Below, in pieces: positions 8,756-56,385 of a DNA stretch of 64,000 nucleotides. The notes below the pieces were generated by a model. That model made no database searches. It was given only the letters and a program-made list of their open reading frames with translations, and was not told the DNA's origin. The position numbers and the translations under genes are program-made. Every line of letters begins with the position of its first letter. Position 1 is the first letter of the stretch. Location of the stretch: positions 4,549,987 to 4,613,986 of the forward strand of contig CBDHHA010000008.1 of assembly GCA_965263255.1 (NCBI GenBank). Direction: 5' to 3'. The DNA comes from Bryobacterales bacterium (GTDB lineage Bacteria > Acidobacteriota > Terriglobia > Bryobacterales > UBA6623).

Positions 8756-11401
8756 TCAGGGCTCTCCGGTCAGCATGGCGGCGATTCTGCGGAACCCGTT
8801 CGCCTGCGCCAGCGAGAGCGCCGTAGCGCCTTCCGCATTGCGCGCGTCCGCGTCCGCGCCGCGCTCGAGCAGTTCCTGCACGACCAGCGACTGCCCGCGG
8901 GAAACGGCAACCAGCAGGGCGGTGAAGCCTCGCGAGTCCGAGACGTCGAGGCTCGCTCCGCCATCGGCGAGGATGCGGACTCCCGAGAGAGTTCCCGAGG
9001 CCGCGGCCAGCATGAGTGGCGTGACGCCGTCGGGTCGCGCGCGATTCGGGTCGGCGCCCCCCGCGAGCAGCACTTCGATCGACTCCGCGTGGCCATTCGC
9101 GGCCGCGAACATCAGCGCCGAGGTTCCCTCCGCGTCAACCAGGTCGGGGTCCGCGCCGCCCGCCAGCAGCGTCGCGGCAGTCGTGGAGAATCCCTCGGAG
9201 CCGGCCATCATTAGCGCGGTTCGCCCGTCGGGCGTCCTGGCGTTCGGCGCGGCACCGCTGTCTAGCAGGACTTCCACGGTTTCCCTGTGATTCTTCCCGG
9301 CCGCCAGCATCAGGGCCGTCCCTCCGTCCGGTGCCGTGGCATCGGTAGCCGCCCCGTTCGCGAGTAGCTCGGCCACGGCCGCGGCGTGACCCCGGTCGGC
9401 CGCCAGCATCAGGGCCGTGGTCCCGCCGGGATCGCGGCTGTTCACGCGGGCCCCGGCGTCCACTAGGGTCTTGATCCTGTCCGCGCGTCCAGTCGCCGCG
9501 ACGATCCGGAGCAGCTCGTCCAGATCCTCGTCCGCTCCCGCGCGCTCAAGGTCGAGGGCGGCTTCGTCGAACCCCGCCAGAGCCGCATGGACCAGCGCCG
9601 TCCGCCCCCGGTCATCGGAGTCGTCCGGCCGCGCGCCGTTGTCGAGCAGGAACCGGATCGCCTCGGCCTGTCCGGCACCCGCTGCCAGCATCAGGGCCGT
9701 CCTCCCGCCCGACATCCGGGCGCCGACATCCGCGCCCGCCTGCACCAGCGTTTCGAGAGCCACCGTGTCTCCCCTGGCGGCCGCCAGCATCAAGGCCGTG
9801 CGTCCGCCGTCCCCTGCCGGGTCCACGCTGGCTCCCGCTGCAATCAGCGTGCGCAGCATCGAATGGTCGCCCTGGGAAACCGCGATCATCACTGCTGTCG
9901 TCCCGTCGCCAGCCTGGGCGTCAACATCCGCCCCGGCCTCGATCAGGATCCCTGCCATCGTAGGCAGCCCCTTTGAGACGGCAAGCACCAGCGGCGTCCT
10001 GCCGCCCTCGCCCCTCGCGTTCGGGTCGGCGCCTGCCTGTAGCAGCGTTCGAACAATGGAGGTCTGCCCCTCCCAGGCGGCCATCAGCAGCGGCGTCCAG
10101 CCTACCTGGCTCGCCAAGGCAGCGTCGGCCCCTGCCCGCAAGAGCGCCTCGACGATCGCCCGGTGGCCTTCTGCCGATGCCAGCATCAGCGCGGTGACGC
10201 CGCCTCCGTGGATTGTCCCGCTCTGGACGGCGACGGGAACACCTTCCCTGCTCTGCCGGTTGACTTCGGCCCCCTCTGCGATCAGGAGACGAACTGTGCC
10301 CAAGTGCCCGCGCAGCGAAGCGATCATCAGGGCGGTCAGGCCCCTGCTGTCGCTGATGCCGGGATCCGCTCCCCGGCCGAGGGCGGTCGCCGCTTCTTCG
10401 GTCCTGCCGACCCTCGCTGCGAACAGGAGGTCCTCGGACGGTGTCGATGAAGCCCCTCGAGCCCGGAGTTCCTCGACCGTCTCGACGCGGCCGAGCAGCG
10501 CGGCCTGGACAAGAGCCGATTCCCCGAGGGCGTCGACCGCGTCGATCTCGGCTCCGTGCGCCAGCAGGGTGCGGACAATGTCCGTGTGGCCGTTCGACGC
10601 CGCGAACATGAGCGCCGTCCGACCGTCGATCGATGCGTGGCGGACACCCGCTCCCGCACTCAGGAGCGAGGCCACGGTGCGCCCTGCTCCCTTCGACGCC
10701 GCGAGCATGAGGGCCGTCACCCCTCCCAACGGGACGTCGAAGTCGCCGGCGGAGATATTGGCCCCCTCGGCACCGCGGGCATCCGCGTGGGCTCCCGCTT
10801 CCAGGAGCGCGTCGACGACCGGGAGATGGCCTCTGAAGGTTGCGGCCATCAGCGGGGTCTGGCCCGAGTCGTCCGCTTGGTTCGGATCCGCTCCGGCGCG
10901 CAGCAGTGCCTGCACGACCGAATCCTGCCCGCCGGCTGCTGCGAGCAGGAGAGCGGTCTCGCCGCCGTCGCCGCGGACATCGACGCTCGCGGAATCCAGC
11001 AGGGTTGGGACTGCTCCGGTGCGGTTTCCGGCAATGGCGACCATCAGCGCCGTCTGCCCGCTGTCGTTCTGCGCGTCGGCTCGGGCACCCGCATCGAGCA
11101 GCCTTCGGAGGGTCCTCTCATGGCCTGCCGATGCGGCGGCCATCAGGGCCGAGGTGCCTCGATCGTCGACTGCGTGAACGTCCGCGCCCTCGGCGAGCAA
11201 GGCCTCTACTGCTTCGAGACCGCCGCCCAGCGCGGCCAGCATCAGGGGAGTCGTGCCGCGGTCGTTCCGGGCGTCAACGTCCGCTCCCTGCTCGATCAGC
11301 GTGCGGACCCGGAGGCTGTCACCCGCCTGCGAGGCTCCCAGCAGTGCCGTGTCGACGGCCGTCCGTTGCGCGTGCGCCGGTGCAACGTGCCCTAGCGCCA
11401 C
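8756..11401 (-). CDS. Giant ankyrin-repeat protein (881 aa from GTG 11401, made almost entirely of ~33-aa ANK units)
   Basis: The consensus G(x)TALMxAAxxGHxxxVxxLLxxGADxxAxD repeats from the N- to the C-terminus, roughly two dozen units. The true start may be CTG 11422 (see findings). Confidence 0.85.
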   Translation of the reverse strand: MALGHVAPAHAQRTAVDTALLGASQAGDSLRVRTLIEQGADVDARNDRGTTPLMLAALGGGLEAVEALLAEGADVHAVDDRGTSALMAAASAGHERTLRRLLDAGARADAQNDSGQTALMVAIAGNRTGAVPTLLDSASVDVRGDGGETALLLAAAGGQDSVVQALLRAGADPNQADDSGQTPLMAATFRGHLPVVDALLEAGAHADARGAEGANISAGDFDVPLGGVTALMLAASKGAGRTVASLLSAGAGVRHASIDGRTALMFAASNGHTDIVRTLLAHGAEIDAVDALGESALVQAALLGRVETVEELRARGASSTPSEDLLFAARVGRTEEAATALGRGADPGISDSRGLTALMIASLRGHLGTVRLLIAEGAEVNRQSREGVPVAVQSGTIHGGGVTALMLASAEGHRAIVEALLRAGADAALASQVGWTPLLMAAWEGQTSIVRTLLQAGADPNARGEGGRTPLVLAVSKGLPTMAGILIEAGADVDAQAGDGTTAVMIAVSQGDHSMLRTLIAAGASVDPAGDGGRTALMLAAARGDTVALETLVQAGADVGARMSGGRTALMLAAGAGQAEAIRFLLDNGARPDDSDDRGRTALVHAALAGFDEAALDLERAGADEDLDELLRIVAATGRADRIKTLVDAGARVNSRDPGGTTALMLAADRGHAAAVAELLANGAATDATAPDGGTALMLAAGKNHRETVEVLLDSGAAPNARTPDGRTALMMAGSEGFSTTAATLLAGGADPDLVDAEGTSALMFAAANGHAESIEVLLAGGADPNRARPDGVTPLMLAAASGTLSGVRILADGGASLDVSDSRGFTALLVAVSRGQSLVVQELLERGADADARNAEGATALSLAQANGFRRIAAMLTGEP

Positions 11402-11531
11402 GAAGGCGGCCAGCAGACGCAGGCCGCTCCTTGCAAGCTCGATACGCGTAAGCCCCTCCGATACGATAGGCCAAGATTCTCGCTCGGGACGCCTTCTGAT
11501 CGCAAGGCCCGGTCCCGTCGGGCCGTCTGCA

Positions 11532-13292
11532 GTGACAAGGCGCCGCGTCCTCCAACTATTGAACGGGAGCGTTCTCGCGCTTCCGGAATCGCGGGCCCAG
11601 CGCGAAGCGCAGCTACAGCCCTTGCGGGGCCGGTCCGCCGGGTCGAGTTCCGGGGCCTATCCGGCCAGGTTCGTGGACGTCGCGTCCCATGCGGGCCTTA
11701 CGCAAACGGTCTACTACGGCGAGGAGGACACTTCCGACTTCATTTCCGAGGCGAACGGCTGCGGCGTGGCGTTCTATGACTATGACCACGACGGCTGGCT
11801 TGACGTCCTGCTGCTGAACGGTTCACGCCGGAGCGGCATACCTGCCGGCGAGACTGCCACGAATCGGCTCTACCGGAACAACCGCGACGGGACATTCACG
11901 GACGTGACTCGCGAGGCGGGCCTCGTGCGGACCGGCTGGGCGAATGGCGTCTGCATAGGGGACTTCGACAACGACGGCTTCGATGACCTCTTCATCACGT
12001 ATCGCGGCAGTAACGTCCTGTATCGCAACAACGGGGACGGAACATTCACCGATGTGACGGCCGAATCCGGGGTCGGCGGGGACCCGCGATGGTGGAGCAC
12101 TGGCTGCACGTTCGTCGACTTCGACCGGGACGGATACCTAGATCTGTTCGTCGCCAACTACGTGGGCACGGGCAGCCTCGGGAGCCTGCCGCCTAAGGGA
12201 CGTACGACATGGAAGGGCGTGCCGGTGGCATACGGGCCCCAAGGTCTGGAACAAGGGTCGCACGTCCTGTACCGGAACAACCGCGACGGGACATTCACGG
12301 ATGTCACCGACGAGTCCCGGGTGGGTGACGCGCCGGGCTACGGGCTGACCGCGATGTCCACTGACTACAACGAGGACGGATGGCAGGACATCTACATCGC
12401 GTGCGACTCGAGCCCCAGCATCCTGCTGAGGAACAACCGGGACGGCACGTTCACCGACATAGCGACCGAGCGGGGCCTGGCCTACAGCCCTGACGGCGTG
12501 GCCCAAGCGGGCATGGGGCTGGCGATTGCCGACTACACGTCCGACGGCAAGCTGGACATCGTCAAGACGCACTTCGCGGACGACGTTCCAGGCCTGTATC
12601 GGAACGACGGACGCGGGTACTTCTCCGACGAGTCGCCCCGTGTCGGGCTCCGTGCCAGCTCCCGGCATCTGGAGTGGGGCGCCGGGCTCGTCGACTTCGA
12701 CAACGACGGCAGGCCCGACCTGTTCTACGTCTCCGGCAGCGTCTATCCCGAAGTCGAGGCCGTCAATCCCGACTATCCCTACCGGGGCCCTAGGTTCCTC
12801 TTCCGTAATGTGGGCAACGGCGCCTTCGTGAACGTGTCCGAACAGTGCGGGCCTGGTCTCACGGTTCCGCACTCGAGTCGCGGCTGCGCCTTCGGGGACT
12901 TCGACAACGACGGGGACATGGACGTCCTCGTGATGAACATGAACGAGCCCCCCTCGCTGCTCCGGGTGGATTCGCGCTCAGGCAATCACTGGCTGAAGGT
13001 GAAGCTGAAGGGCGTGCGGTCGAACCGCACGGCGATCGGCGCGCGGGTCTACGTCCGGTCGGGCGGCCAGGTCCAGGCCCAGCAGGTTCACAGCCAGGAC
13101 AGCTACCTCTCCGTAAGCGACCTGCGGCTCCACTTCGGCCTCGGGTCAGCTCGCCGGGCGGACTCGGTCCGCGTCGAATGGCCAAGTGGATCCACGGAGA
13201 TTCTCGCGAACGTCGGTGCCGACCAGTTGGTCCATGTCGAGGAAGGCAGGGGAATCGTCCGCAGCGAGCGGTTCAGGGGCAACGGCGCGTGA
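11532..13292 (+). CDS. CRTAC1/ASPIC-UnbV family FG-GAP repeat protein, paralog 3
   Basis: GTG 11532 gives the leader VTRRRVLQLLNGSVLALP, which has an RR motif. The repeat architecture matches paralog 2 (LYRNNRDGTFTDVTREAGL, DFDNDGFDD ...). The C-terminus is NRTAIGARVYVRSGGQVQAQQVHSQDSYLSVSDLRLHFGLG. The upstream part of ORF 11253..13292 is antisense to the ankyrin gene and is not credible. Confidence 0.85.
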   Translation: MTRRRVLQLLNGSVLALPESRAQREAQLQPLRGRSAGSSSGAYPARFVDVASHAGLTQTVYYGEEDTSDFISEANGCGVAFYDYDHDGWLDVLLLNGSRRSGIPAGETATNRLYRNNRDGTFTDVTREAGLVRTGWANGVCIGDFDNDGFDDLFITYRGSNVLYRNNGDGTFTDVTAESGVGGDPRWWSTGCTFVDFDRDGYLDLFVANYVGTGSLGSLPPKGRTTWKGVPVAYGPQGLEQGSHVLYRNNRDGTFTDVTDESRVGDAPGYGLTAMSTDYNEDGWQDIYIACDSSPSILLRNNRDGTFTDIATERGLAYSPDGVAQAGMGLAIADYTSDGKLDIVKTHFADDVPGLYRNDGRGYFSDESPRVGLRASSRHLEWGAGLVDFDNDGRPDLFYVSGSVYPEVEAVNPDYPYRGPRFLFRNVGNGAFVNVSEQCGPGLTVPHSSRGCAFGDFDNDGDMDVLVMNMNEPPSLLRVDSRSGNHWLKVKLKGVRSNRTAIGARVYVRSGGQVQAQQVHSQDSYLSVSDLRLHFGLGSARRADSVRVEWPSGSTEILANVGADQLVHVEEGRGIVRSERFRGNGA

Positions 13293-13310
13293 GCGCCGCT
13301 CTCCCGCTCG

Positions 13311-13330
13311 GGTCGGCTCAGCCGCCGACC
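13311..13330. terminator. GC-rich hairpin between convergent genes (GGTCGGC-N6-GCCGACC)
   Basis: A perfect 7-bp stem sits 19 nt after the CRTAC1-3 stop. It has no U-tract, so its intrinsic-terminator status is uncertain. Confidence 0.3.
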
Positions 13331-13367
13331 GAGGTTGCCGGATCGCGCAGGGATGCCCAGGCAGGAG

Positions 13368-13404
13368 CCGGGTGCCCCCCGAACGGGAGTCCCGCGGCAC
13401 CCGG
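13368..13404. terminator. 9-bp stem hairpin (CCGGGTGCC-N19-GGCACCCGG) between convergent genes
   Basis: Perfect inverted repeat lying 32 nt downstream of the TonB-dependent receptor stop (13436, minus strand). There is no clear U-tract on either strand. Confidence 0.35.
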
Positions 13405-13435
13405 AATCAAGATGGCTGTCAGCGATGCCGAGCGG

Positions 13436-16400
13436 CTACCACTCCACGCGCATGCGGAGCTGAATCGTCCTAGGCCCCTTGGGCTGTTCCGGCACGATCC
13501 TCCCGAACGACGAGCTGTTGATGTTGTTGCCGAAGCGGCCGGCGATCCATCGATGCCGATTCAGGCAGTTGAAGCAATCGGCGCCGATCTGGAGCCGCAC
13601 CTTCTCGGTGGCCAGGGGAATCCGCTTGACGACCGACAGGTCCTCGTTGAAGTTCGGGCACTGCCGGGTCTCCTGATCGACCTCCGGCGCGTTCCCCTCC
13701 ACGAAATCGCCGGGAGGCAGCCATGCCTGCGGGCGGTTGGGGGCGACTTGGGACGGGTTGCCGGCGTTCAGGATGAAGTTCCGGGTGGGATCCCCGAACA
13801 CCATGTCGCCGCAGGCGATGGAACTCCGCCAGGGCACGTCGGGAGCGCGGTCGGCCAGATTGCGGACTCCGCCCGGGATGCCGACGGACAGTCCCCCGCC
13901 CGTCGAGATCGGAAAGCCGTTGACGTATTCCTGCACGCCCGATACGGTCCATCCGCTCAGGACGTACTTGCTGAAATTGCTGGTTCCTCCCCATCTCTCG
14001 CCCGGCCCGAAGGGGAGGTCGTAGGAGTAGTTGAAGACAGCGCGATGAGTCGTGTCATAGCGATTCACCCGCTTGTCCAGCTTGCGGTTGTAGGAGTTCC
14101 GGGTGTTGCTGCCGAATGCGCCGGGAGCCCAGTCAACGTCTCCCAGTTGCTTGGCAACAGTCCAGTGCCCGAGGAACGAGAGGCCGTTTGAGTAGCGTTT
14201 CGTCGCCTTCAGCATGAACGCGTTGTAATTCATTCCGGTGTTGATGCCGGCGTCGTTCGAGATGTTGTTGAACTGCGGGAAGCGCCGCAGGGCGCGGTGG
14301 AGCGGCAGGTTGTCGGGGAACTCCGGATAAGGCTTTCCGAAGCCGGCGGCCGCTACCGCCGGGTCGCTGACCTCGAGATTGAGCAGCGGGCCGAGGTGCC
14401 AGTAGTCCGGGTGCAGGTCGTTGATGCGCTCGTGGTCATGGTTGTTCCGGCCCATGTTCGAGTAGAACGAGGTCTCGAGTACCCAGTCGCCGAACTGGCG
14501 CTGGAAGCCCGCGGTGATCATGTAGAGCACCGGAGGCGTGCCGATGGTGTGCGGGCTCATCCAGTTCGTGATGGACTGGTTGTTCAGGAAGGCCGGGTCG
14601 ATGAAGGGTGGCGTTCCCAGCTGCGAGGCCGGGAAGCCGTTGTCCCACTCGAAGTACGTGGCGAACGGAGTCGTCCGCGGCGGGGGGTTGCCTCGGGCCT
14701 CGTGGCCGGCCCGGTTGACAAACCGGACGTTCGTGTTCTGGATGGCCATGTACTGGACGCCCGCACCGGCCCGGAACACCAGCTTGTCGGCGATCTGGTA
14801 GGCCAGGCCCAGGCGCGGCCCGAAGTTGCCCCAGGTGGCGGGGCCTACCCGGAACTTGCCGTTCGCGCCCTGAGAACTGCCGTAGAATTCGAGCGCACCG
14901 CGGTAGTTCCCGCTGATGCCCGGGTTCGCGAGAGTCTCGTCGAACCCGGAGAACTGGCCGCTGTTCTCCTTGAAGGGCATTTGCACGTCCCAGCGGAGGC
15001 CGAGGTTCAGGGTCAGCTTGGGAAGGACCTTCCAGTCGTCCTGGATGTACAGGGCGTGGTAGGCCTCCCGCTCCTCCAGCGCGAGTCCCGCTGCCGTTCC
15101 GACGAAATTGGGCAGGCCGAGGAAGAAGTCGGCTAGATGGAAGCCGCCCGCGCCGTTCGTGTCCTTCGTCTCGCTGCCGAGATTGCCCTCCGAGACTCCG
15201 AATAGGTAGGTTCCCGCCGCTCCCACGCTGAGGCCCCCGGCGGCGCCGCCCTGGTCATGCCGGTTGATGCGCCAGTACTGCCCTTGGTAGCCGAACTTGA
15301 TGGTGTGCCGGCCCTTGTTCCAGAGGGTGCTGTACGCCCAGTTCGGAATCAGCTTGTTCTCGATGTTCTGGGGCGGATTGGCGCAGATCGAGACGCCGAA
15401 GCTCGAGGCCCGGGCCAGCTGGATCCAGGGACACTCGTTGCTGGGCATGCCCGAGAGGCCGATCTGGTTGGCGATCCCCTGGCCGAAGTTGTTCTGCTCC
15501 CTTCCGTTCTGCTGGTAGTTGAATCCGAACAGGACCTGGTGAACGACCCTGGGACTCTGCACCCACGAGTAGTCCGCGCGCATCCGCTGGAAGGAGTTGA
15601 ACGTCGTTCGTCCGAAGCTGTCGTCCAAGATCCCTCCCGGGTCCGTCTCGATCCGCGGCGCAGTCCCGTACATGTAGAAGGCGGAGATGCGATGGTTCGC
15701 GTTGAACTGGTGGTCGATCTTCGTCGTCAGGTCCCAGGGCTTGAACGTGCTCGAGACCGAGCCGAGATGATTCAGCTCGGGAGTGTCGCGCGCATTGGGT
15801 AGAGGCAGCAGCTGCATCACGTTCGCAGACACGCGGCTCAGCCGGCTCATCGGGATCTGGTTGTTGACGAACGGGCGGAATCGAATCTGATTGTCGGCGT
15901 CCCGGTACTGGTCCTTCCTGTCGAAGAGCTGGTTGAGATCAGGGTGCGAGAAGTCGCCGCTGCGCATGGCCGCAGTCGGCAGGGTCAGGAAGTTCGTGGC
16001 GCTGCCGGTGGCGCTCTGGCGGTAATAGGCCAGGGTCGACCAGAAGAAGGTCTTGTTGCGCCCGTTGTAGGCTCCCGGAATGATGACCGGGCCGCCGGCC
16101 GCGACGCCGTACTCGTTGTTGCGGCTGTTCGCCCGCTCGGCGGCCTGCCACGGCCGGGCGTTCAGGAACGAGTTGTTGTGGAAATTCCATACGGATCCGT
16201 GGAATTCGTTGGTACCGGACTTGGTCGCGTAGGTGATCAACCCGCCGCTGGTGCGCCCGTACTCCGCGGACGTGTTGCTCAGCAGCAGCTTGTACTCTCC
16301 GATCGCTTCCACGCTGGGCTCCGTGCCCGCTGCCTGCTCGCCGACTCCGTTGTTGGTGGTCTCGGTCGAGAGGCCGTCCAGCATGATCACGGTATTGAGT

Positions 16401-51149: not shown

Positions 51150-51537
51150 GGCACCGAGGATTCTCGCACAGAAGGGTGTGGGAGCCGGCAGCCACTTAGG
51201 TGCTTCCCGGCTTGCGCAACGCGGAGAAGGCCGAACGGCGACGAGCGGCGGACGCCCCCGTTCCAGACGCGCCCTTCCCAATGCCTGCTAGGCTTCCATA
51301 CGCCATCCGTCACTGTCGGCGCATGAGTTGGACGGGATGCCTCGGGGCGAATGCCGGACGGAACGGCAAGCTTGGGTAAGGACTAGAATGAGTTCGAGCG
51401 ACGCCGGGCTCATTGGACACCGTTCCGGATGAGCCAGGGCTACTTCCGTGGAGCAGCCGGATGCAAGGCCGGTCGCAGCGTAAGAATCCTGCATACGTCG
51501 TTACGGGACGTTGCCAAGGCACGAAGTGGAGTCGAGT

Positions 51538-52656
51538 ATGGCCGGACATCAGGACCGGATTACCGAAATCAAGGTCTCCAACTATCGGAGTATCGGGCAA
51601 GAGCAGCAGGTCGAACTCGGGCGGCTGACAGTACTCGTCGGACCCAACGGTTCTGGCAAGAGCAACCTAGTCGATGTGCTCAGCTTCGTGCGCGATGCAA
51701 TGCACAATGGCCTCTCGGCCGCAATCACGGGCCGGGGTGGCATCGACGCTGTGCGGCGCAAGAGTGCAGGGCGAGGGCGTCCCTGTAACGTAACCATCCA
51801 GCTATCGGTCAGCCTTGAGTCCGGACAGGGCTCCTACGAATTCGAGATCTCAGGGGACCGGAGAGAGGAGTATCGCGTCAAGTCGGAATCGGCGTTCGTT
51901 CGTCTGAGCGATGGGCCGCAGCGGTTCAGGGTCGAAAAGGGAATCTGGCAGGGACCGGAGGGGCTTGAGCCGAAGATCAGTGACACAGGGCTCGCGCTTC
52001 CCGCTGTGGCTGGGGATGACCGATTCCGTCCTTTGTTTGAATTGATATCACGAGTGGTTATCTATGCCATCTTCCCCGACACGCTGCGAGAACCCCAGAA
52101 ACCCAACCCCGAGAAGCCGATGCACAGGCACGGCGAAAATTGGGTCTCAATTCTGCGGAATCAGGAAGTGTCCACGTGGAAGCCAGAACTCGTTGCCGGG
52201 CTCAAGTATCTCATCGGCGATGTAAGCGACATTAGGGTCAATAGAGTTGCGAATTTCCTGGTTGCGCAGTTCCGACACGGGCAGGGGAGGTGGTTTGATG
52301 CGGGCCAGGAGTCTGACGGCACGCTTCGGGTTGCGGGAATCCTAACCGCCCTGTTGCAAGAGCCGCCACTGCCACTCGTCGGTATCGAGGAGCCTGAACT
52401 GACAATTCACCCTGGAGCGCTTCCAATGTTGATGGACTACCTGCGGCAGGCCAGTGACATATCTCAGGTGCTCCTTACCTCCCACAGCCCCGAGCTGTTG
52501 GATCTTGTCGAAACGGATGAAGTCCGAGTGGTGGCCCGAGCGAATGGCGCAACGCGAATCCGTCCTATGGCGGGGCACCAGAGGGATGTTGTCAAGAGCC
52601 GACTGCTGACCCTCGGCGAGCTCATGACGACTGAAGGCCTATTGCAGCAATTGTGA
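51538..52656 (+). CDS. ABC/SMC-type AAA ATPase (AAA_15/AAA_21-like), partner of the DUF4276 gene
   Basis: ATG 51538 lies 6 nt after GGAG. The opening IKVSNYRSIG precedes Walker A GPNGSGKSN. Signature-like ESDGTLRVAGIL, Walker B LVGIEEPE, H-loop LTSHSPELL. Its stop overlaps the next gene's start (GTGA). Confidence 0.8.
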   Translation: MAGHQDRITEIKVSNYRSIGQEQQVELGRLTVLVGPNGSGKSNLVDVLSFVRDAMHNGLSAAITGRGGIDAVRRKSAGRGRPCNVTIQLSVSLESGQGSYEFEISGDRREEYRVKSESAFVRLSDGPQRFRVEKGIWQGPEGLEPKISDTGLALPAVAGDDRFRPLFELISRVVIYAIFPDTLREPQKPNPEKPMHRHGENWVSILRNQEVSTWKPELVAGLKYLIGDVSDIRVNRVANFLVAQFRHGQGRWFDAGQESDGTLRVAGILTALLQEPPLPLVGIEEPELTIHPGALPMLMDYLRQASDISQVLLTSHSPELLDLVETDEVRVVARANGATRIRPMAGHQRDVVKSRLLTLGELMTTEGLLQQL

Positions 52657-53312
52657 GAATCCTGGTAGTGATGAATAAATCGAAGAAGGTATATGTTCTT
52701 GTAGAGGGCCACGGAGAGGTAGCGTCAGTACAGAACCTTCTCACCAGAATTTCCAGTGAACAGGACGTTCACTTTGCGTGGGCGAAACCCATTAGATGGA
52801 AGAACCTCCACAAGCAAAGTGGGTGCCAGCGTGGGGCGGATTTCATTCGGGCCAAGCCCGATGCGGAGGCCATGCTCGTTCTCCGGGATGGAGACCGCGG
52901 CTGCCCCAAGCAACTGGGACCAGAAATGGCGGATTGGATGCGCAAAGCGAGTCTTCCCTTCCCGTCGGCCGTCGTCTTGCTGCACCCGGAGTACGAGGTT
53001 CTCTTCCTGCCATGCCTCGACCTCATTGCGGGAAGGCTGCTTGACGGTCGTCCTGGCCTCTCTCCGGGAACGGTGTGGGATCGACCGACCTGGGAGTCGA
53101 AACGAGGAGTCAAGGAGTGGCTGACTCGCAACTATCCAAAGAATCGATGCTATAGGGAAACTCTTGACCAACTCCCAATGACACGGATGGTGGATCTTGA
53201 ACGCCTAAGGAAAGCCAATGTGCCGTGTTTCGGAACACTGGAACGGGCCGTGCAATTCCTGGCTCGGAGCTCGGATGCGGGAGCGGTGTATCCCGCAATG
53301 CCCGAGCCGTGA
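52653..53312 (+). CDS. DUF4276-like protein with Toprim-like motifs
   Basis: The strand-1 glutamate is in KKVYVLVEGHGE. The DxD motif is in MLVLRDGDRGCP. A later acidic motif is LLHPEYEVLFL. The start is GTG 52653 or ATG 52671. The DUF4276 assignment comes from memory of the family pattern and needs an HMM check. Confidence 0.7.
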   Translation: MRILVVMNKSKKVYVLVEGHGEVASVQNLLTRISSEQDVHFAWAKPIRWKNLHKQSGCQRGADFIRAKPDAEAMLVLRDGDRGCPKQLGPEMADWMRKASLPFPSAVVLLHPEYEVLFLPCLDLIAGRLLDGRPGLSPGTVWDRPTWESKRGVKEWLTRNYPKNRCYRETLDQLPMTRMVDLERLRKANVPCFGTLERAVQFLARSSDAGAVYPAMPEP

Positions 53313-53555
53313 ACGAATGTGCGCCGCGCGTAGCGCATTGATTCCGCAACGTGCTCCTAGGCAAAGCGGATTCGCGCGTCAATGGACGTTCGTGGGCAGC
53401 CGGCTCATGGCTTGCCTCACTGCCCTCCCGATGTGTAGTCCATAGCCTGGCCGGCCAGCCAATTCGCCCAGGGTCGCACCCATGGTCGTACACTGTCTTC
53501 GGACTGATGGACGGCCCGTCGCCACGAATGGTCCCGGGCCTCGCGAGCTAGCGAA

Positions 53556-55286
53556 GTGCTATCCAAGCTGAGGATCCGCAACTTCAAGCGTTTCGACCAG
53601 CTCGAGGTGGCACTCGGGAACCCGGTCTTGCTCCTTGGGCCCAATGACTCGGGCAAGTCCACCGTGATGCAGGCGCTCTCGCTCTGGGAGACCGGCCTCC
53701 GGCGTTGGCTGGAACGGCATTCCAGGGCACGGGCACCGGCGGACCGGCCCGGGGTGACCCTCAACCGGCGTGATCTCGTCTCGATGCCCGTCCCCAGGGC
53801 CAACCTTCTCTGGAAGGACCTTCGCTTGCGCGACGTTGGCGGGAGTGATGGCTGGCAAGCAACCGAGCACGTCAGGATCGAGATCGTCGTCGAGGGCACT
53901 GGCGGGGGCAGCGCGTGGGAGTGCGGTCTGGAGTTCGACTACGCAAACGAGGACTTGATCTACTGCCGTCCGCTCCGAGCCGACGATGGCCCGGACATCC
54001 GGAGAATCCCTGTACCCGAGCAGGCTGCCGAGGTTCGCACCGCATTCCTGCCCTCGATATCCGGGCTCGCACCGAGCGAGACATTGCTGGCGCCCGGCAC
54101 CGTCGGTGTCCGCATTGGCGAGGGCCGCACCGCCGAGGTGCTGCGGAATCTGTGCCTGGCCGTGTGGGAGCGCCAGCCCGAGAACTGGGACAAGATAGTC
54201 GGGCATATCCGCTCCCTGTTCGGAGCGACCGTCGACCCGCCCCGCTACCAGGTCGAGCGAGGCGAAATCACAGTCGCGTTCCGTGACGGCGACCTGCTAA
54301 TGGACATCTCCTCAGCCGGGCGGGGCTTCCACCAGCTGCTGCTGGTGCTCTCATTCATGTACGCTCGCCCGGGTACGGTGCTGCTGCTGGACGAGCCCGC
54401 TGCACATCTGGAGCCCTCGCGCCAGCGCCAGTCGTATCGGGCGATTCGCGAGGTCTCGCGGGAGACCGGCAGTCAGGTCATCATCTCGACGCATTCCGGG
54501 GTGCTGCTGGACGAGGCCCTCGATCAGGACCTCGTGCTCGCCTTCGTGGGAAAGCCCCGCCAGATTGGCAGGCACTACGGCGAGCGTGCCGCGCAGGCGC
54601 TCCGCGAGATTGGTTTCGAGGACTGCATGCAGGCGGAACAGGCGGGCTGGGTGCTCTACATTGCCGGCCCGGCGGACCTCTCCGCGCTGCGGGCGTTCGC
54701 TCGCCGCCTCGGCCACGAGCGGGCGGTTGCAGCGCTTCAGCGCCCGTTCGTCCGCTACCTCGCGAATTCCGGTTCCGCTGCCGAGCGCCATTTTGGGGCG
54801 CTCGCGACCGTCGTGCCGGAAGTCCGGGGCTGCGCGCTCTTGGACAGCCGGAACTCTGATGACAGTGCCGGCAGTAGTCCCAACGGGCCCGCATTACTTC
54901 GCTGGAGCAGGGGCCGGCTCGAGGACTACGTGCTGACGCCCGCGGCGCTTGAAGCATACGCAGTCCGCGAAGCACGCTCTCAGGCTGTCGGCCCACTCTT
55001 CGCTCCAGACCAGGCCGCGACGCGGCGCCAGGCCATGAGGGAAGCGATCGATTCCGTAGGGGACCTCCAAGGGGAGGACTTGGCCGGGTCGCGGGCTGCC
55101 CATGGCGGGTGGGCTGCGCTCGAGCCGGTCTTCCGGCTCTACAGGCTGAAGCTCGGTCTCGGTGCAGATCTTCCGCTTCCGGATGCGGCGGATCTGGTGG
55201 AGGGCCTCCCCGACAGCGAGATTGATGCCGAGATCCGCGAGAAGCTCGACGCGATCGTTCTCGCGGCGGAGGGTGTGGGCGATTGA
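53556..55286 (+). CDS. OLD-family-like fusion of an N-terminal ABC-type ATPase and a C-terminal Toprim-like domain with degenerate motifs
   Basis: GTG start. The opening LRIRNFKRFD precedes Walker A GPNDSGKST. Signature-like SSAGRGFHQLL, Walker B VLLLDEPAAHLEP, H-loop ISTHSG. In the C-terminal part, WVLYIAGPADLSALRAF parallels the OLD/GajA motif VLLIEGPSEKILFEKV, followed by CALLDSRNSDD and LEDYVLTP, which resembles IENYLL. Confidence 0.7.
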   Translation: MLSKLRIRNFKRFDQLEVALGNPVLLLGPNDSGKSTVMQALSLWETGLRRWLERHSRARAPADRPGVTLNRRDLVSMPVPRANLLWKDLRLRDVGGSDGWQATEHVRIEIVVEGTGGGSAWECGLEFDYANEDLIYCRPLRADDGPDIRRIPVPEQAAEVRTAFLPSISGLAPSETLLAPGTVGVRIGEGRTAEVLRNLCLAVWERQPENWDKIVGHIRSLFGATVDPPRYQVERGEITVAFRDGDLLMDISSAGRGFHQLLLVLSFMYARPGTVLLLDEPAAHLEPSRQRQSYRAIREVSRETGSQVIISTHSGVLLDEALDQDLVLAFVGKPRQIGRHYGERAAQALREIGFEDCMQAEQAGWVLYIAGPADLSALRAFARRLGHERAVAALQRPFVRYLANSGSAAERHFGALATVVPEVRGCALLDSRNSDDSAGSSPNGPALLRWSRGRLEDYVLTPAALEAYAVREARSQAVGPLFAPDQAATRRQAMREAIDSVGDLQGEDLAGSRAAHGGWAALEPVFRLYRLKLGLGADLPLPDAADLVEGLPDSEIDAEIREKLDAIVLAAEGVGD

Positions 55287-55500: not shown

Positions 55501-56385
55501 ATGGCTGCGGCAGACCCGTCCTCCAGCGAAACGCCCGTTTCCCGCAAGGCGACGCTGCTGATCACCCTAGTGGCCGTGGCCAGCATCGTCATTCCGTTCT
55601 GGTTCTGGATGGACACGTGGTTCGGAAAGCGCCTCACCGAGGAGCAGATCGGCCAGTACCTGGTTGACGAAGATCGCCCTCGCCGTGCGCAGCATGCGCT
55701 AGCACAGATCTCCCAGCGGATGACTTCCGGAGACGAGTCCGTCAGGGTCTGGTACCCGAGAATCCTGGAATTGGCGCGTCACCAGCTGCCCGAGCTCCGC
55801 GTCACGGTTGCCTGGCTGATGGGAGACGACCCGTCCAGCGAGGAGTTCCACGACGCCCTCCGGGTGCTGGTTGCCGACCCCCACCCCCTGGTACGCCGCA
55901 ACGCCGCGCTCGCTCTGGCGAGATTCGGCGATTCCAGCGGCCGTGAAGAGATGCGCGCGATGCTGCAACCCTACCGCGTTGCCTCGGATCACTCCGGCAT
56001 TGTCACCAATCGCCTCGAGCCTGGCGACGCATTCGAGGCCGGCGCGCTTCTGGTTCGGATCCAGCCGGAAGACGACGCGGACCCGTTGGACGTTCGCGCG
56101 CCCGTGCCCGGGATCGTCGACCGCCAGCTGCGCGCTGATGGCGACCGCGTCACAACGGGCGACGAAGTGACGGTCGTCCGCCCCGAGTCGACGCATATCT
56201 TGCAAGCCCTCGCGGGGCTCTATCTAGTGGGTACTTCCGAGGACATTGGCCTCATCCAGCCGTACCGGAGGCCGAGAAGCGGCCTCAGCGCCCAGATACC
56301 CCAGCAAGCCGCGCTGACGCTGGCCGGAATCCGCGAGCGCTTGGCGGGCGGCTCCCCGGTACCGGCTGCGGGAAGCCAGCTCTAA
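55501..56385 (+). CDS. Membrane-anchored HEAT-repeat protein with a C-terminal barrel-sandwich-hybrid (lipoyl/HlyD-like) motif
   Basis: It has one N-terminal TM helix (LLITLVAVASIVIPFWFWM) and HEAT-like units (DPHPLVRRNAALALARFGDSSGREEM). The segment GIVTNRLEPGDAFEAGALLVRI...VRAPVPGIVDRQLRADGDRVTTGDEVTVV resembles a barrel-sandwich hybrid. Confidence 0.55.
   Translation: MAAADPSSSETPVSRKATLLITLVAVASIVIPFWFWMDTWFGKRLTEEQIGQYLVDEDRPRRAQHALAQISQRMTSGDESVRVWYPRILELARHQLPELRVTVAWLMGDDPSSEEFHDALRVLVADPHPLVRRNAALALARFGDSSGREEMRAMLQPYRVASDHSGIVTNRLEPGDAFEAGALLVRIQPEDDADPLDVRAPVPGIVDRQLRADGDRVTTGDEVTVVRPESTHILQALAGLYLVGTSEDIGLIQPYRRPRSGLSAQIPQQAALTLAGIRERLAGGSPVPAAGSQL

Follow-up and report, generated by a model that had tools for sequence, protein, structure and literature searches.

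The usual view of OLD proteins is of nucleases in which the ATPase half does no more than regulate cutting. Here, we describe an OLD-like gene from a Bryobacterales bacterium (assembly GCA_965263255.1, contig CBDHHA010000008.1) that belongs to a clade lacking acidic residues of the OLD metal-binding sites. The gene lies at positions 53556 to 55286 of the 64,000-nucleotide stretch of DNA that we analyzed, which we call the window (contig positions 4,549,987 to 4,613,986), and it encodes a 576-amino-acid fusion of an ABC-type ATPase and a Toprim-like domain. In the OLD protein of Thermus scotoductus (TsOLD), metal A is bound by E377, D431, and D433 and metal B by D381, S478, and E480, and triple mutants of a single site, whether metal A or metal B, still nick DNA (PMC7049728). 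Cran1, an active nickase, uses E338, L391, and D393 together with E341, E409, and E411 (PMC12796447). The mechanism of Class 1 (single-gene) OLDs is still unresolved (PMC10568477). The literature searched yielded no account of an OLD clade that lacks its ligands naturally.

The best-supported reading of the window protein is a Class-1-like, single-gene OLD-family protein with an ABC ATPase, a Toprim-fold domain, and a helical tail. We consider it probable that it is a naturally nuclease-dead OLD-like ATPase that has been retained by selection for a non-catalytic role.

Predicted metal ligands in the window protein and its clade

The features of the gene and the evidence for them are as follows.

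53556 to 55286, plus strand: complete gene for the 576-amino-acid OLD-like ATPase-Toprim protein (GTG start, stop included; full-length homologs at 45-98% identity)
53556 to 54560, plus strand: ABC-type ATPase half, residues 1-335 (Pfam, profile match to 6p74, motif tables)
53655 to 53657, plus strand: K34 of Walker A, GPNDSGKST (motif table)
54390 to 54395, plus strand: D279/E280 of Walker B, VLLLDE (motif table)
54399 to 54401, plus strand: A282, in place of a near-invariant Asp (motif table)
54492 to 54494, plus strand: His313 of the H-loop, THS (motif table)
54561 to 54983, plus strand: Toprim-like alpha/beta domain, residues 336-476 (AlphaFold2 [AF2] models, hhalign, BLASTP)
54663 to 54677, plus strand: motif 1, AGPAD, with A370 (54663-54665, GCC) and D374 (BLASTP, hhalign, phmmer)
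54837 to 54845, plus strand: motif 2, LLD, L428-L429-D430 (D430 at 54843-54845), where the family has [L/I/V]-x-D in place of DxD (BLASTP, hhalign)
54915 to 54929, plus strand: motif 3, RLEDY, with R454 (54915-54917) and E456 (54921-54923), compared with EIENY in the family
54984 to 55283, plus strand: C-terminal helical domain, residues 477-576 (AF2 models, clade alignment)

To place the Toprim motifs, we used as a bridge a 585-amino-acid Burkholderia glumae protein found by tblastn of plasmids and named "ATP-dependent nuclease" at NCBI (WP_257814229). BLASTP aligned the window protein with it from the ABC signature through residue 510 at ∼24% identity, pairing YIAGPAD with WVEGPSD, LLDSRNS with VMDSDRS, and RLEDYV with EIENYV, collinear over all three motifs. 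Within the B. glumae family, the motifs VWVEGPSD, MDSD[KR], and GREIENY are invariant. A full-length profile-profile hhalign comparison of the two families (probability, 92%; E = 5.6e-7) set A370 on the Glu, and the C-termini of 53 diverse representatives of the window family aligned collinearly with the B. glumae C-terminus over 96 columns and three motifs (P = 3.5e-4). The diverse representatives were needed for this result, as hhalign with low-diversity alignments recovered motif 1 only. The link to known systems comes from phmmer, which pairs the B. glumae VEGPSD with the GajA IEGPSE and thereby sets the Glu of the former against GajA E379. A370 therefore replaces, by alignment, a family-invariant Glu equivalent to GajA E379 and TsOLD E377 (metal A). 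A first-pass annotation, made by eye, had already taken YIAGPAD for the Toprim strand-1 motif with A370 in place of the Glu in IEGPSE, and the three methods bear this out. It also considered that a profile alignment might place the Glu elsewhere; hhalign sets A370 on it. In the Glu column, which the annotation had singled out for an alignment check, none of the 14 clade members has Glu, compared with all 105 of the homologs outside the window clade (among the top matches) and 49 of the 53 diverse representatives of clusters.

The annotation fared less well on the other two motifs. It located the expected DxD at LLDSRNSDD; the location holds, but a DxD is not to be expected there, as the whole family has [L/I/V]-x-D and the window protein keeps the single Asp, D430. 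Since hhalign puts this Asp on the second Asp of DxD and BLASTP puts it on the first, the register of motif 2 relative to DxD is uncertain by two residues. LEDYVL was described as retained, and E456 is indeed kept, but the motif is not intact: the first Glu of E-I-E-N-Y, an invariant residue, is Arg (R454), which the annotation missed. The equivalents of R454 and E456 in TsOLD are S478 and E480 (metal B). D374 is also kept and is equivalent to TsOLD D381 (metal B). At the six positions, the window protein thus reads A370, D374, L428, D430, R454, and E456, and it is short of one Glu per predicted metal site (E370 and E454). The canonical family site (E370, D374, [LIV]428-x-D430, and E454-x-E456) is closest in form to the LxD and ExE of Cran1.

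These losses are shared by the clade to which the window protein belongs (P0001-P0014 and P0018; loci L001-4, L011/L097, L012/L094, L093, and L096). All of its loci with a taxon label are metagenome-assembled genomes (MAGs) of Bryobacterales. Residue counts, given here for the 14 non-redundant members, show that two residues of the acidic metal-binding set of OLD proteins (Glu after strand 1, DxD after strand 3, and S/T/E-x-E after strand 4) have been lost clade-wide, along with charged residues of the tail.

E370: kept in 0 of 14 (residues A, S, G, N, R)
E454: kept in 0 of 14 (residues R, K, T, G, H)
D430: kept in 7 of 14
E456: kept in 9 of 14
D374: kept in 13 of 14; the remaining one has Glu
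K516 and K541: each kept in 0 of 14, invariant elsewhere in the family
D519: kept in 1 of 14, invariant elsewhere in the family

Position 370 is Ala in the window protein and Ser in a 98% identical strain, and apart from E472, no new conserved acidic residue is found in the Toprim domain of the clade. Of the positions that do not vary elsewhere in the family, the clade fully retains 84 of 178 in the ATPase and 20 of 42 in the Toprim domain, and it has fixed conservative replacements of its own, e.g., S36T, S312T, and A419V.

Selection, inheritance, and the absence of a partner gene

The gene is an intact, full-length open reading frame (ORF) in six diverged genomes. The ratio of nonsynonymous to synonymous substitution rates (dN/dS) is 0.23 against the 98% relative (22 synonymous and 15 nonsynonymous differences). 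Against the more distant L001 and L002, where dS is ∼1.2-1.3 and synonymous sites are near saturation, it amounts to 0.20-0.22 overall; taken separately, the Toprim domain gives 0.19-0.26 and the tail 0.18-0.30. With dN/dS at ∼0.2 in every domain, the Toprim domain is still under purifying selection despite its lost ligands. We rejected a pseudogene on the basis of dN/dS and the intact ORFs.

The gene sits at one chromosomal site throughout the clade. Upstream, every clade locus has an SSF transporter, a Na/sulfate symporter, and a GFO oxidoreductase, all on the opposite strand; downstream, most loci have a HEAT-repeat membrane protein, LpxC, and a FAD-binding oxidase. No other family member occupies this locus. 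Identity of the ATPase falls across the six genomes in step with that of the flanking genes, only faster, which indicates vertical inheritance with a raised rate.

Genome 1: ATPase 97.6%, flanks 97-99%
Genome 2: ATPase 67.5%, flanks 76-92%
Genome 3: ATPase 65%, flanks 87-91%
Genome 4: ATPase 61.5%, flanks 70-88%
Genome 5: ATPase 59.7%, flanks 71-83%
Genome 6: ATPase 56.8%, flanks 67-85%

As the annotation had observed, no UvrD-like (GajB) or other partner accompanies the gene. The UvrD/PcrA-like helicase gajB is found neither downstream, where the HEAT-repeat membrane protein and LpxC stand, nor near relatives; there is no reverse transcriptase among the neighbors of the gene or its relatives. 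E-containing family members stand alone in unrelated housekeeping contexts, and when we clustered the neighbors of 81 loci, no gene family recurred in more than 8 of them. At least 10 homolog contexts and this clustering thus show a single gene without a conserved adjacent partner. The host-like GC content in the annotation is likewise confirmed: the gene, at 0.673, is in line with the 0.661 of the window and above the 0.593 of the cassette directly upstream. We sought a second paralog in the 64-kb window and found none, and a promoter and terminator scan near the gene was uninformative.

The ATPase half and the fold of the C-terminal domain

The GTG start codon agrees with the homologs, whose N-termini open with MLTKL at the equal position. 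Residues 1-330 match the Pfam families AAA_15 (9.7e-18) and AAA_21 (1.8e-17), and the best solved-structure sequence for the family profile is TsOLD (6p74; E = 1.2e-13). The PADLOC models NsnB, AriA, MAD3, Old, and GajA give partial matches, every one of them within the ATPase half. Walker A, Walker B, and the H-loop are all present, as in the N-terminal ABC-type ATPase of OLD proteins. By alignment with 6p74, A282 occupies the acidic position two residues past the Walker B Glu and is not part of the D-loop. Foldseek with the full-length AF2 model (mean predicted local distance difference test score, 78.7) returned TsOLD (E = 2.9e-11, 636 columns) and GajA (∼680 columns; range of both, 636-682) as best matches, compared with ∼400 columns for the ATPase-only PtuA (∼350-450 for PtuA and SMC heads). 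An alignment that runs ∼250 columns past the ATPase-only matches is consistent with a two-domain layout in common with TsOLD and GajA. The OLD/GajA-like size and layout proposed in the annotation are upheld by these matches.

The C-terminal Toprim fold is assigned from the hhalign and BLASTP alignments above, the predicted topology, and the full-length fold matches, without a Pfam match or a significant Foldseek match for the isolated domain. Predicted Toprim strands span residues 365-369, 398-401, 424-429, and 446-449, giving the beta-alpha-beta-alpha-beta-beta topology expected of Toprim, and a loop without a helix joins the last two, i.e., there is no helical insert ahead of strand 4. The Pfam model OLD-like_TOPRIM (PF20469) gives sub-threshold matches in 15 of 40 B. 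glumae-family members. Pfam on 31 C-termini of the window family gave noise only, and PADLOC on the same 31 gave weak matches to AriB (3 of 31; best E = 0.02), AriAB (1 of 31; E = 0.062), and PDC-M55B. Overall, the best matches of the domain, all of them weak, are GajA, AriB, and AriAB. When the C-terminal profile was searched against 1.84 billion representatives, the 150 listed of 907 clusters all belonged to the same family, with no bridge elsewhere.

Proposed function and alternative explanations

The ancestor of the window's Bryobacterales lineage probably lost one ligand per predicted metal site (E370 and E454), and the remaining ligands, along with three conserved charged residues of the tail, would have drifted afterwards. 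With these Glu residues lost and the other ligands drifted, the Toprim domain should no longer be able to perform two-metal cleavage. We infer from this a loss of nuclease activity in a protein that is nonetheless kept: it passes vertically at one locus, retains the motifs for binding and hydrolyzing ATP, and shows purifying selection in each of its three domains. In the likeliest working model, it would be an ATP-driven dimeric ABC-type protein that binds nucleic acid or a ligand. The Toprim fold may then act in binding or regulation, and instead of cleaving, the protein would sense, scaffold, exert toxicity through its ATPase, or fill a domesticated host role. The annotation had offered a nuclease-dead sensor or scaffold or, alternatively, a divergent active site. 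The hypervariable ligand positions and unconserved acidic residues favor "dead," while sensor or scaffold stays conjecture. The Toprim domain of Escherichia coli YbjD is not needed for the anti-phage phenotype (PMC13261556) and Cran1 has been recruited to cell-cycle control; both make a non-catalytic role plausible, and neither identifies it. More tentatively, it is possible that an OLD defence ATPase-nuclease has been domesticated in Bryobacterales into a nuclease-independent chromosomal protein, in which ATP-driven binding through a dead Toprim fold would serve the host, or would guard or sense at a hotspot for the insertion of defence genes.

Several observations weigh against a nuclease-dead protein retained for a non-catalytic role. 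Residual activity is conceivable, because D374, D430, and E456 remain in the window protein and TsOLD single-site triple mutants still nick DNA. The ATPase motifs are not untouched: Walker B of P0018 reads LLLDAP, with the catalytic Glu changed to Ala; the H-loop of P0012 reads STRS, with His changed to Arg; and the window protein and its 98% relative P0001 both carry A282. The gene also evolves faster than all its neighbors in the clade, and this rate and the scattered motif changes fit some general relaxation of constraint. Finally, as there is no Pfam or solved-structure profile match, the basis for assigning a Toprim domain is profile alignments of moderate strength together with predicted topology. 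The C-terminal ∼240 amino acids have no Pfam match even at E ≤ 10 (query, C-terminal 272 amino acids), the family C-terminal profile found nothing relevant among PDB sequences, and, as the main weakness of the fold assignment, the isolated C-terminal model had no significant Foldseek match in PDB or BFVD.

How far do these points support other explanations? The protein might still be a nuclease, with a remodeled or one-metal site built from D374, D430, and E456, and possibly with R454 replacing the positive charge of a metal. Three of the five acidic ligands remain, 9 of the 14 clade members have R, K, or H at position 454, purifying selection acts on the domain, TsOLD triple mutants of either site retain nicking (PMC7049728), and Cran1 is active with LxD for DxD (PMC12796447). 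However, the ligands on which such a site would depend are themselves unconserved in the clade (D430 in 7 of 14, E456 in 9 of 14), and some members (P0008 and P0012) keep almost none of them. Position 370 varies even between 98% identical strains, E472 is the only clade-specific new acidic residue in the domain, and the conserved Lys residues of the tail are gone too, all of which makes a remodeled nuclease unlikely. Less likely again is a slowly decaying, functionless relic of a defence gene that has not yet been disrupted. As a relic would be, this is the fastest-evolving gene of its neighborhood, ATPase motifs have changed in single members, and sites have been lost independently and recurrently elsewhere in the family (L014, L047/L053, L080, P0133, P0184, P0190, and P0249), as sporadic decay would give. 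Set against this are ORFs that stay full-length in six genomes despite nearly saturated synonymous sites, dN/dS of ∼0.2 in every domain, and the retained invariant positions and fixed conservative replacements described above.

The gaps in the fold evidence could also mean that the C-terminal domain is not Toprim, and that the "lost catalytic residues" are misread from an unrelated alpha/beta domain whose isolated form matches nothing in Pfam, PDB sequences, or, significantly, Foldseek. We regard this as very improbable. It would leave unexplained the profile alignment that runs collinearly through three motifs of an OLD-like Toprim family linked to GajA E379, the Toprim-type predicted topology, and full-length TsOLD and GajA fold matches ∼250 columns longer than ATPase-only ones. 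In addition, the best, though weak, matches of the domain are GajA, AriB, and AriAB, and the spacing of the invariant E, D, and ExE of the family is that of the OLD metal ligands.

A nuclease-dead OLD-like ATPase under selection would amount to a natural experiment, in which a clade dropped its metal ligands while purifying selection preserved the entire protein at an unchanging place in the chromosome. A nuclease-independent function thereby becomes directly testable by comparing E-containing and dead family members.

The wider stand-alone family

The window clade is part of a large, cross-phylum family of stand-alone OLD-like proteins. Thousands of full-length homologs are ∼576-580 amino acids long, and the C-terminal domain, clustered at 50% identity, gives 907 clusters. 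The family occurs in at least 519 of the 185,579 species-level genomes, across Acidobacteriota, Chloroflexota, Latescibacterota, Proteobacteria, Actinomycetota, Planctomycetota, and Spirochaetota, with one Bathyarchaeota MAG (L060). Many E-containing members come from MAGs whose names suggest an association with sponges. The plasmid and phage collections searched held no family member and gave ATPase-level matches only. There is no dedicated Pfam, NCBIfam, or PADLOC model, and because existing models miss the Toprim half of the family, surveys may undercount Class-1-like OLDs.

The signature E-D-[LIV]-D-E-E (positions 370, 374, 428, 430, 454, and 456) is present in 79 of 91 locus sequences. 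Since this site matches by alignment the two-metal site of TsOLD, BpOLD, and Cran1, members with the full site are presumably nucleases. Ligands have been lost independently of the window clade at least three more times, in L014, in the Spirochaetia pair L047/L053, and in L080, each with an E-containing nearest relative, as well as in the cluster representatives P0133, P0184, P0190, and P0249. Motifs seen in such cases include YLKG, YLRSSTD with IGNY or IVSY, and YLGGSKD, in proteins whose nearest relatives bear the ligands.

E-containing members from different phyla (loci L013-L090) share ∼65-80% identity per domain among themselves and are ∼45-53% identical to the window protein regardless of phylum. 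This pattern, which ignores phylum, suggests that the active form has often been transferred horizontally, unlike the vertically inherited dead clade.

Two members have unusual architectures. P0050 (658 amino acids) carries a ∼50-residue tandem duplication from Toprim strand 1 to strand 2 (alignment columns ∼475-535), with the repeat AEQTGWVLYLEGSTDL...RPFVRYVKN present twice. P0087 (765 amino acids) has an additional Pfam HsdM_N domain (PF12161), a hint that, at least in one lineage, the family is connected to type I restriction-modification.

Neighboring genes

Upstream of the gene lies a defence cassette that is context and not part of the gene's own system.

51184 to 53483, plus strand: HEC-01 cassette, 2.3 kb, GC content 0.593
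51511 to 52656: HEC-01A, AAA_21 ATPase (PADLOC, 8e-100)
52653 to 53312: HEC-01B/DUF4276 (PADLOC, 6e-31)

In L093, a relative at 98-99% identity, 229 bp stand in place of the cassette, which marks the cassette as a strain-level insertion; we rejected it as an obligate partner on the same grounds. Only 72 bp of the original upstream region are left, so read-through from the cassette may now reach the resident gene. The DUF4276 protein keeps the Toprim Glu (LVEGHGE) and DxD (DGD), unlike the dead Toprim of the resident gene.

Directly downstream of the gene, the region varies among clade genomes. L001 has a 390-amino-acid protein and a 970-amino-acid AAA_16/TPR protein (10061-14142), L094 has a 1,962-amino-acid PDC-S37/Hhe-like helicase (9761-15649), and L097 has a TonB-dependent receptor (12028-15414). 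These varied stretches, together with the cassette upstream of the gene in the window, suggest an insertion or rearrangement hotspot that sometimes takes in defence genes. In the window, the product of positions 55501-56385 (294 amino acids) combines HEAT repeats with a transmembrane helix at its N-terminus and a weak HlyD_3-like segment. This HEAT-repeat gene (69-99% identity) is syntenic with the OLD-like gene inside the Bryobacterales clade only and is probably a housekeeping neighbor; nothing recurs family-wide, and we rejected it as a partner gene, although a functional link is conceivable.

Comparison with known OLD systems

By the length and helical-insert criteria for Class 1 (PMC10568477 and PMC12392090), the window protein resembles Class 1 OLDs (P2 Old, TsOLD [6P74], Vibrio cholerae OLD, and E. 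coli YbjD/OldB). At 576 amino acids, it falls within their 500-600, and its AF2 model shows no Toprim helical insert. Like them, it is encoded by a single gene without a conserved partner, and it has an N-terminal ABC ATPase with an inserted beta-rich region, then a Toprim-type domain and a helical tail. TsOLD is its best match in both sequence and fold. In contrast to Class 1 OLDs, the window family has no Pfam OLD-like_TOPRIM or DUF2813 match and carries [LIV]xD and ExE rather than DxD and SxE. Two ligands found throughout the Class 1 homologs (PMC7049728) are further missing from the window clade, and its gene is chromosomal, syntenic, and vertically inherited, with none on phages or plasmids in the collections searched.

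The other classes are less similar. GajA (Class 2, Gabija) is also an ATPase-Toprim fusion with a full-length fold match, and its IEGPSE corresponds to the window YIAGPAD. However, the window gene has no GajB/UvrD-like neighbor, its product lacks the Toprim helical insert, and Ala replaces the equivalent of E379. Class 3 OLDs are retron effectors, and the window gene, unlike theirs, has no adjacent reverse transcriptase. The retron Eco8 effector model is outside the best 25 of the protein's 59 sub-threshold NCBIfam matches; it matched the upstream HEC-01A protein only, far below the cut-off. PARIS (Class 4; AriA with AriB/DUF4435, sometimes fused as AriAB) shares the AAA_15/AAA_21 ATPase, with PADLOC AriA among the best matches and weak, sub-threshold AriB/AriAB matches from a few family C-termini (AriB, E = 0.02). 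It differs in that the window protein has no Pfam DUF4435 match (PF14491), is a single polypeptide, and has a different tail. The Burkholderia-type "ATP-dependent nuclease" (WP_257814229 and relatives) is similar in length (∼585 amino acids) and domain order and alignable from the ABC signature to the Toprim motifs. However, it is plasmid-borne, with canonical VEGPSD, DSD, and REIENY intact and only ∼24% identity.

Cran1 (Class 5, Sulfolobales) has an E, LxD, and ExE pattern that the canonical family site resembles, as compared by published residues. It is archaeal, with a helical insert, all catalytic residues, and nickase activity, whereas the window family is almost entirely bacterial and lacks the insert. 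Cran1 is essential and linked to the cell cycle, a precedent for an OLD protein in a non-defence chromosomal role (PMC12796447). If the window protein has been domesticated, it would be a bacterial counterpart of the archaeal Cran1, minus catalysis, and would provide natural evidence that the OLD ATPase module can have an output other than cleavage.

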